Shown here: one piece after another, positions 4,656-5,194 of the stretch | Position numbering within the stretch: the stretch's first letter is position 1 | Layout: each line of letters begins with the position of its first letter | IMG/VR virus record: IMGVR_UViG_2529292747_000021 | Span: 1-5,990 of that record | Strand: one strand, 5' to 3' | DNA: 5,990 nt | Source of the DNA: a virus | Lineage: Duplodnaviria > Heunggongvirae > Uroviricota > Caudoviricetes | Made by a program: the position numbers and the translations under genes | The notes under the pieces: generated by a model | The model's input: the letters and a program-made list of their open reading frames with translations, nothing else | Told to the model about the DNA's origin: nothing | The model's database searches: none

Positions 4656-5045
4656 ATGGAATTTAAAGATTTACTAAAAGAAATCCAGGAAATTGCAGCA
4701 CATGCACTTCACCAACGTCTGAACGAAGTTGAATTAGAATCTGCAACGAAGAAATACATTGATAATATGGCTCGTAATGTGCGCGATGCGTTTACCGGAT
4801 TGTACTCTGTTTCGGTAACAAACAACCAGAATACTGAAGAAACTGCAAAGCGGATTGCCTCGGTGATGGGTTTTCATGTCGAGGAAAAGTATTCAAAAAA
4901 AGAATTCTGGAAAACTACAAAAAAATTGCAGAGCGAGAACTGTCATCTCCTGCGGCAATCGCTTCTTTCTATGAGGAAAGTTATTCAGATGACACAGGAT
5001 TACCGGAACTGCTCTCATTACTTGAAAAATTCGGAATTATCATGA
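4656..5045 (+). CDS. Uncharacterised protein (129 aa as called); may be frameshifted or fused with the downstream -1 frame
   Basis: ATG at 4656 preceded by GGAG with a 7-nt spacer. The N-terminal 90 residues look like a helical protein. Contains two in-frame A_AAA_AAA heptamers (4895-4901, 4919-4925). Stop TGA at 5043-5045 overlaps an ATG at 5042-5044. Confidence 0.6.
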   Translation: MEFKDLLKEIQEIAAHALHQRLNEVELESATKKYIDNMARNVRDAFTGLYSVSVTNNQNTEETAKRIASVMGFHVEEKYSKKEFWKTTKKLQSENCHLLRQSLLSMRKVIQMTQDYRNCSHYLKNSELS

Positions 5046-5194
5046 AAGGGACTGCGTCGGCGGATTTCACATACTCAATGATGGCTGCTGATGGAGAGCC
5101 TTTTCCTCCCGAACTTAAAATAACCCCCGGCAATCATCCGATGGTAACAATAAGAGCAATAGAGAATTACTGGTTTAATCCAGTTCAACAATAG
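5042..5194 (+). CDS. Small ORF (50 aa) ATGA-coupled to the upstream gene, or the C-terminal part of a -1 frameshifted single gene
   Basis: ATG 5042-5044 overlaps the upstream TGA. Product MKGTASADFTYSMMAADGEPFPPELKITPGNHPMVTIRAIENYWFNPVQQ. The same frame is open upstream back to 4838 without any ATG or GTG. Confidence 0.3.
   Translation: MKGTASADFTYSMMAADGEPFPPELKITPGNHPMVTIRAIENYWFNPVQQ

Follow-up and report, generated by a model that had tools for sequence, protein, structure and literature searches.

Our analysis indicates that the plus-strand gene at positions 4656-5194 of the window, by which we mean the whole stretch of 5,990 nucleotides that was analysed, is very probably (about 90%) a frameshift pseudogene of a 179-codon prophage gene, split when one A dropped out of a run of eight and not read through by any programmed mechanism. 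The ancestor would have been a single prophage accessory gene of 179 codons in the early-left operon, between ydfB and dicF. Intact orthologues collinear with the broken copy exist (P0001-P0009), runs of seven and of eight A residues (A7 and A8) are found on near-identical flanks, and independent assemblies agree on the lesion. It would be an ordinary pseudogene, and we see nothing mechanistically new in it.

A first-pass annotation of the window had described an ATG at 4656 opening a 129-aa frame 0, two in-phase A7 runs and a -1 frame extending to a TAG at 5192-5194, and all of these lie exactly where it placed them. Each run, at 4895-4901 and at 4919-4925, forms a heptamer A_AAA_AAA that begins at codon position 3 of frame 0. 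In the -1 frame, 118 sense codons follow one another without interruption from 4838 up to the TAG. This frame was rightly said to lack an ATG or GTG before 5042: its earliest ATG, GTG or TTG is the ATG of position 5042, and this codon shares the ATGA at 5042-5045 with the frame-0 stop. The open -1 frame exceeds chance expectation, as only 35 of 5000 dinucleotide-preserving shuffles of 4656-5194 had an alternative frame open for at least 118 codons. The features of the gene are the following.

4656-5045, plus strand: frame-0 open reading frame, ATG 4656 to TGA 5043-5045, 129 codons; annotated by PGAP in an identical locus as hypothetical protein WP_000394511.1.
4656-4925, plus strand: 5' part of the disrupted gene in frame 0, codons 1-90 (MEFKDL...EFWKTTKK), collinear with residues 1-90 of the intact homologues P0001-P0009.
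4895-4901, plus strand: first A7 run, Ser-Lys-Lys codons TCA AAA AAA, read in frame; not the frameshift site.
4919-4925, plus strand: second A7 run and site of the lesion, one A lost from the ancestral A8 (ACT ACA AAA AAA ATT).
4925-5194, plus strand: 3' part of the disrupted gene in the -1 frame, equal to codons 91-179 plus the TAG (IAERELSSPAAIASFYEES...NYWFNPVQQ and stop).
4926-5045, plus strand: out-of-frame tail of the 129-aa product (LQSENCHLL...NSELS), stop TGA 5043-5045, present in A7-lineage proteins only (P0010, P0012-P0014).
5042-5044, plus strand: ATG that opens a 50-aa ORF; internal Met130 codon of the intact protein and not an evolved start.
5141-5143, plus strand: codon changed in the A7 lineage, ATG (Met) versus AGG (Arg163) in the intact proteins; Lys in L015.

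When we searched with the conceptual fusion of the two frames, its relatives proved to be single ORFs of 177-186 aa, the nearest of them exactly 179 aa long, as had been anticipated for a continuous protein of about that size. The best match, P0001, has 179 aa and is 94% identical to the fusion; P0002 has 179 aa, P0003 has 180 aa, and P0004-P0009 range from 177 to 186 aa. The nearest A8 alleles, those encoding P0001, P0002 and P0003 and that in the complete genome of strain A19, are continuous over 179 or 180 aa and read ...EFWKT[T/A]KKIAERE... across the second run. Further away, about 25 genomes at some 77% nucleotide identity likewise carry one continuous ORF of 177-186 aa, represented by L005 in O139:H1 P15-25 and L006 in TUM9812, and PGAP calls a single ORF in both of these strains as well as in A19. 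None of 50,697 phage records was matched by the -1-frame product in tblastn, so that all relatives were drawn from genomes of bacteria and from metagenomes. Downstream of the run, omega is about 0.2 at dS above 1 in comparisons of intact alleles of the family, which shows the 179-aa protein to be the product of a genuine gene under purifying selection.

To place the lesion, we aligned the DNA encoding the intact proteins, together with the complete genome of strain A19, to the window. The states of the two runs in the aligned loci were these.

Window and copies at least 99% identical to it: first run TCA AAA AAA; second run ACTAC-A7-TT; split into two frames.
L008-L010: first run TCA AAA AAA; second run ACTAC-A8-TT; continuous, 179 aa.
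L011 and L012: first run TCA AAA AAA; second run ACTGC-A8-TT; continuous, 179 aa.
L013 and L015: first run TCG AAA AAA; second run ACTGC-A8-TT; continuous, 180 aa, L015 being annotated from an upstream start.
L005 and L006 (group at about 77% identity): first run TCA AAA AAA; second run replaced by ATGGCCAAACGCATC, with no run; continuous, 177-186 aa.

Every intact homologue translates the first run in frame 0 as Ser-Lys-Lys (...YSKKEFWK...); being conserved and in frame, it is not the frameshift site. Its A_AAA_AAA heptamer is not itself conserved, being TCG AAA AAA in L013 and L015. At the second run, addition of one A to the window sequence yields ...EFWKTTKKIAERE..., which matches P0001 exactly at the junction and is also collinear with ...EFWKMAKRIAERG... 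of the 77% group, where the corresponding DNA, CCAAACGCATC, is collinear with the A8 form. The equal length of this run-free outgroup and the A8 form makes the continuous frame the ancestral state, with an A8 to A7 deletion in the window. The proposal of a single-A deletion in a once-continuous gene is thereby borne out, the intact single-ORF homologues having either A8 or collinear run-free sequence. The transframe junction had been drawn at the first run (...KYSKK-RILENYKK...), which was wrong: homology puts the change of frame at the second (...EFWKTTKK-IAERE...), and a transframe peptide made there would span EFWKTTKK/IAERELSSPAAIASFYEESYSDDTGLPELLSLLEK. The in-phase heptamer and the open -1 frame both arise automatically when an in-frame ACA AAA AAA ATT loses one A, so the phasing of the second run is no independent evidence for recoding.

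The length of the tract was examined with probes of 62-64 nt differing in tract length alone. The 63-nt A7 probe found an exact match in 384 of the 387 complete E. coli genomes carrying the allele, and exact A8 or A6 on this background occurred in none of the complete genomes with it. Some 386-411 complete E. coli genomes share the identical locus, and the serotypes with the A7 allele include O157:H7, O121:H19, O103 and O111:H11. These results show a true deletion at 4919-4925, fixed in the near-clonal allele that several hundred STEC genomes carry; that 384 complete genomes have exactly A7 also contradicts the suggestion, made when the window was first annotated, of a homopolymer miscall. Sampling of this allele type is lopsided, with some 386 complete genomes for the broken form versus one (A19) for the intact form. 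We considered whether the tract might be a phase-variable contingency locus and rejected this, given the lack of exact A8 or A6 in complete genomes and the artefactual nature of the single A6 copy.

We propose the following course of events. Loss of one A from the in-frame A8 would have turned ACA AAA AAA ATT into ACA AAA AAA TT and inactivated the gene. Normal decoding would now give a 129-aa product consisting of 90 native residues and a 39-residue out-of-frame tail. The native C-terminal 89 residues could be made solely by rare, unprogrammed slippage on the A7, whether a ribosomal -1 shift or an extra A added by RNA polymerase, and the full-length share arising in this way would probably be well under 1% of products. 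A 50-aa fragment might arise in addition if ribosomes happened to re-initiate at the ATGA overlap.

Slight hints of relaxed constraint after the break would fit such a history. Over the 267 nt downstream of the run, the window and L008 (the DNA encoding P0001) differ at 4 positions, 2 of them synonymous, a number too low for decay to be visible. The change R163M, present in the window and in L014, affects an arginine that is invariant in the nine intact database proteins; it fits relaxed constraint, as far as a single substitution can tell. Upstream of the run, the variants within the A7 lineage differ solely by changes of amino acid: F84L (PE164) and, in L017, 5 nonsynonymous versus 0 synonymous changes. 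These hint at relaxed constraint, but they are few, and the variants came to light as distinct proteins, which biases the sample. Downstream of the run, none of the four variant alleles available in the A7 lineage shows a substitution, so this comparison is powerless for selection. Against the view that the gene is dead, we counted the fact that A7 is a common allele found in several serotypes and that the downstream -1 frame is still open in every A7 copy examined, so that it may be persisting; the copies, however, are at least 99% identical, and too little time has passed for visible decay.

The pseudogene reading has close parallels in the cryptic and decaying lambdoid prophages of E. coli, where homopolymer indels are found in pseudogenes: here too, a single-base loss from an A8 splits a conserved ORF of which related prophages keep intact alleles. 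Unlike those cases, this one bears no pseudogene flag in RefSeq, which lists the 129-aa hypothetical protein WP_000394511.1. If our reading is right, this entry, carried by several hundred STEC genomes, represents a truncated product, and its proper annotation would be that of a pseudogene in the 179-aa family. The recent loss of one base from an in-frame A8 leaves exactly such a trace: an in-phase A_AAA_AAA and, after it, a long -1 frame that resembles protein. Scans for frameshift sites therefore need conservation of two frames in diverged homologues before recoding is called.

The foremost alternative is that recoding at the second run is programmed or selectively retained. A fixed fraction of ribosomes would slip -1 at 4919-4925, or RNA polymerase would add an A, so that the 129-aa and 179-aa products would be made in a set ratio for the sake of which the A7 allele would be maintained. 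A slippery heptamer of the form X_XXY_YYZ is indeed in phase at 4919-4925, as it is at 4895-4901, and a -1 shift at the second run recovers the homologous protein exactly; the allele is also widespread, with a tract length that is stable across the 384 genomes. The phasing, as noted above, is an automatic by-product of losing one base from an in-frame A8, and the layout in two frames is not conserved: it is limited to a single allele, the copies of which have 99% identity or more, and is absent among diverged homologues, all of which are single ORFs with A8 or with no run. Moreover, R163M strikes an invariant residue of the C-terminal part that this alternative supposes to be needed.

Nor did we find the accessory signals of a programmed site at the second run. 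In systems of the dnaX or IS3-IS911 type, an A_AAA_AAG or A_AAA_AAA heptamer is accompanied by an upstream SD and/or a downstream hairpin or pseudoknot. The present gene resembles them in its in-phase A_AAA_AAA and in the longer fusion that a -1 shift would give. It differs in that no SD-like stimulator lies upstream of the second run, the best anti-SD duplex there having -3.3 kcal/mol versus -7.3 kcal/mol for the dnaX SD, and in that no significant structure lies in the 80 nt downstream of it (MFE -16.1 kcal/mol versus a shuffle mean of -16.8 kcal/mol, z = +0.22). A weak, interrupted hairpin (-10 kcal/mol) does begin 5 nt downstream of the run, but its sequence is older than the deletion, being common to the A8 alleles, and in L013 the hairpin is disrupted. 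A further difference from the dnaX and IS3-IS911 systems is the absence of the two-frame layout from all diverged homologues of this gene.

The efficiency to be expected of the bare heptamer is that of unstimulated sites, tenths of a percent (PMC4066793). In E. coli reporters lacking stimulators, the background of constructs with no motif was about 0.055% and motif-to-background ratios were 2.1-10; for A_AAA_AAA the listing is just as one of the motifs giving frameshifting above 0.10%, and the motif is used by some IS elements (PMC4066793). Transcriptional slippage in bacteria reaches high efficiency at runs of 9 (PMC5009743), and A7 falls short of the roughly 9 A or T residues at which slippage by bacterial RNA polymerase is efficient. 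In sum, the programmed -1 frameshifting entertained by the first-pass annotation finds no support, given homologues that are single ORFs, a split confined to one near-clonal allele and a second run devoid of a stimulator, and we regard any programmed or retained recoding as very unlikely. Even so, A_AAA_AAA shifts to a measurable degree with no stimulator, so traces of the full-length protein are probably made by unprogrammed slippage and could matter.

A related and similarly doubtful reading is that A7 is a retained, 'attenuated' allele in which the full-length 179-aa protein has been cut to the sub-percent level of spontaneous slippage. So-called savior or compensated indels, and rescue by transcriptional slippage at poly(A) tracts, have been described for the G-run of herpesvirus TK and for poly(A) genes of Buchnera and Blochmannia (PMC5009743). 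As in those systems, low-level slippage of polymerase or ribosome on the same run could partly compensate the indel here. The runs in the endosymbionts and in Thermus, however, are of about 9 or more residues versus seven here, and our case offers no known benefit of the indel or need for the product. If this reading were true, either the trace of 179-aa protein or the 129-aa product with its conserved N-terminal module would benefit STEC prophages, the allele having spread over O157, O121, O103 and O111, and the locus would be a prophage analogue of a savior indel.

It is highly improbable that the region instead holds two genes, of 129 aa (4656-5045) and 50 aa (5042-5194), coupled through the ATGA overlap. 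Termination-reinitiation at overlaps of this type is mechanistically plausible, the ATGA is present, and one gene caller predicted the 50-aa ORF in the draft genome L018, whereas PGAP left it uncalled. The two-ORF layout occurs in no homologue, and nothing homologous to the frame-0 tail is seen beyond the A7 lineage. The ATG at 5042 corresponds to Met130 (...FGIIM[K/T]GTA...), invariant and internal in all nine intact homologues, and the -1 frame upstream of it (IAERELSS...FGII) is homologous over 39 codons to residues 91-129 of the intact proteins. Because of this internal methionine and the homology preceding it, the ATGA overlap is best seen as a coincidence of the shifted frame, and the coupled pair suggested earlier is left unsupported. 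Re-initiation at the ATGA is possible, though not as an evolved arrangement.

A -1 shift at the first heptamer (4895-4901), giving ...KYSKKRILENYKKIAERE..., is scarcely credible. The heptamer is in phase, an SD-like GAGGA stands 9 nt upstream (CGAGGA, duplex -5.9 kcal/mol), and in the A7 allele the -1 frame entered there is open to 5194. Yet all intact homologues read through this run in frame (KKEFWK), two of them (L013 and L015) have TCG AAA AAA in its place, a shift would replace the conserved EFWK motif, and in the A8 alleles, by alignment, it would meet a stop after about 25 codons. Finally, a sequencing or assembly artefact, that is, a true A8 under-called as A7 in the window, can be all but dismissed: such under-calls are known to occur, the A6 of L014 being one and a second A7 frameshift in the window, in a DUF1627 gene, being open to the same explanation, but the 384 RefSeq genomes with exactly A7 come from many laboratories and none has A8 on this background.

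The A6 version itself, found in L014 and in the protein P0011, was considered as a polymorphism of tract length and rejected as an assembly artefact, as it comes from a draft assembly and A6 is absent from the complete genomes. Compared with the reference locus, L014 (GCA_008122345.1) has 13 gap openings in 6.3 kb, nearly all of them single-base deletions in runs of the A5 or T5 type. P0011 represents a cluster of 105-aa proteins with 70 members, read from the run in its A6 state; the single contig found to encode such a protein belongs to this draft assembly rich in homopolymer deletions. Assembly errors are thus able to seed spurious protein clusters.

The DUF1627 gene provides a second example, in the same window, of a prophage pseudogene formed by a homopolymer indel.

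447-626, minus strand: frameshifted DUF1627 gene, start ATG 626; run at 509-515 (T7 on the plus strand), read as GAA CTC AAA AAA ATG.

Its frame 0 stops after 59 aa and the -1 frame runs on to the edge of the window. PGAP marks a near-identical DUF1627 gene in strain 319 as 'frameshifted', and probes for the run on this background found exact A8 in 164 complete-genome records and exact A7 in 287. A second A8 to A7 frameshift in the same window fits general prophage decay.

The intact protein of 179 aa appears to be modular. The first 50 or so codons (4656 to about 4805, MEFKDL...DAFTGLY) are common to 212-aa prophage proteins of phrog_2151 and to three further PHROGs, and a mosaic junction lies inside the gene near 4805, beyond which the C-terminal 125 or so residues are unrelated to the 212-aa phrog_2151 proteins. 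As only those first codons are in common, we rejected the 212-aa proteins, which other prophages carry in this slot (L002-L004), as homologues informative on the frameshift. In profile searches, P0001 matched phrog_1363 over residues 1-95 (E = 3.6e-36) and phrog_2151 over residues 1-83 (E = 6.3e-33). Early-left-operon proteins of these two families share with our gene the MEFKDLP... N-terminal module and the slot after DUF1391 and ydfB. The arrangement suggests that, between ydfB and dicF, interchangeable C-terminal domains are fused to one conserved N-terminal module. A Pfam search of all products gave no significant match, the PHROGs search matched only families of unknown function, and a search of the literature for the protein accessions or the name 'ybl81' found nothing. 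An AlphaFold2 model built on a 9-sequence alignment was poor (mean pLDDT 50.6, pTM 0.34). As an accessory gene of a hypervariable slot in lambdoid prophages, the intact form may merit a study of its own.

The window as a whole comes from an E. coli prophage of the lambdoid (Qin/Rac-like) type and covers its immunity and early-left region. Along the plus strand, a DUF1391 gene is followed by ydfB, the gene studied here, the DicF RNA and then sequence leading to dicB; two of these neighbours define the slot.

4516-4644 (window equivalent), plus strand: ydfB, annotated by PGAP directly upstream of the gene in an identical locus.
5754-5805, plus strand: full-length DicF small RNA (Rfam RF00039, 76.9 bits, E = 2.8e-16), with a T6 run after it.

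In another O157-type prophage, ydfC fills the same slot. The initial placement of the gene between ydfB and dicF, where ydfC stands elsewhere, accordingly agrees with the PGAP call of ydfB, the Rfam match to DicF and this O157-type prophage.

The replication/immunity module and the ydfB-dicF module are combined differently among prophages. Among the complete E. coli genomes of the collection, none matches the window (1-5990) collinearly over its full length, the best matches covering 81-88% of it in 2-3 pieces; in strain 319, the same left part is joined instead to ydfC and to an ECs_2282 zinc-binding gene. The latter, a minus-strand gene in the ydfB-dicF region of that strain, is annotated as 'ECs_2282 family putative zinc-binding protein'. 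The window has a small convergent ORF on the minus strand (5232-5417, 61 aa, WP_001133046.1), in which a CPVC...CPEH motif suggests a zinc ribbon.

Other genes of the window were noted in passing. By the PGAP annotation of near-identical loci, a RelB-family antitoxin (3598-3789) and a RelE/ParE-family toxin (3791-4069) lie between a repressor-like HTH gene and DUF1391/ydfB. The HTH gene, which starts at 3206, has an in-frame A8 of its own at 3210-3217, in codons 2-4 (ATG CAA AAA AAA GAA). This tract, of the same kind as that reduced to A7 in both broken genes, is intact.
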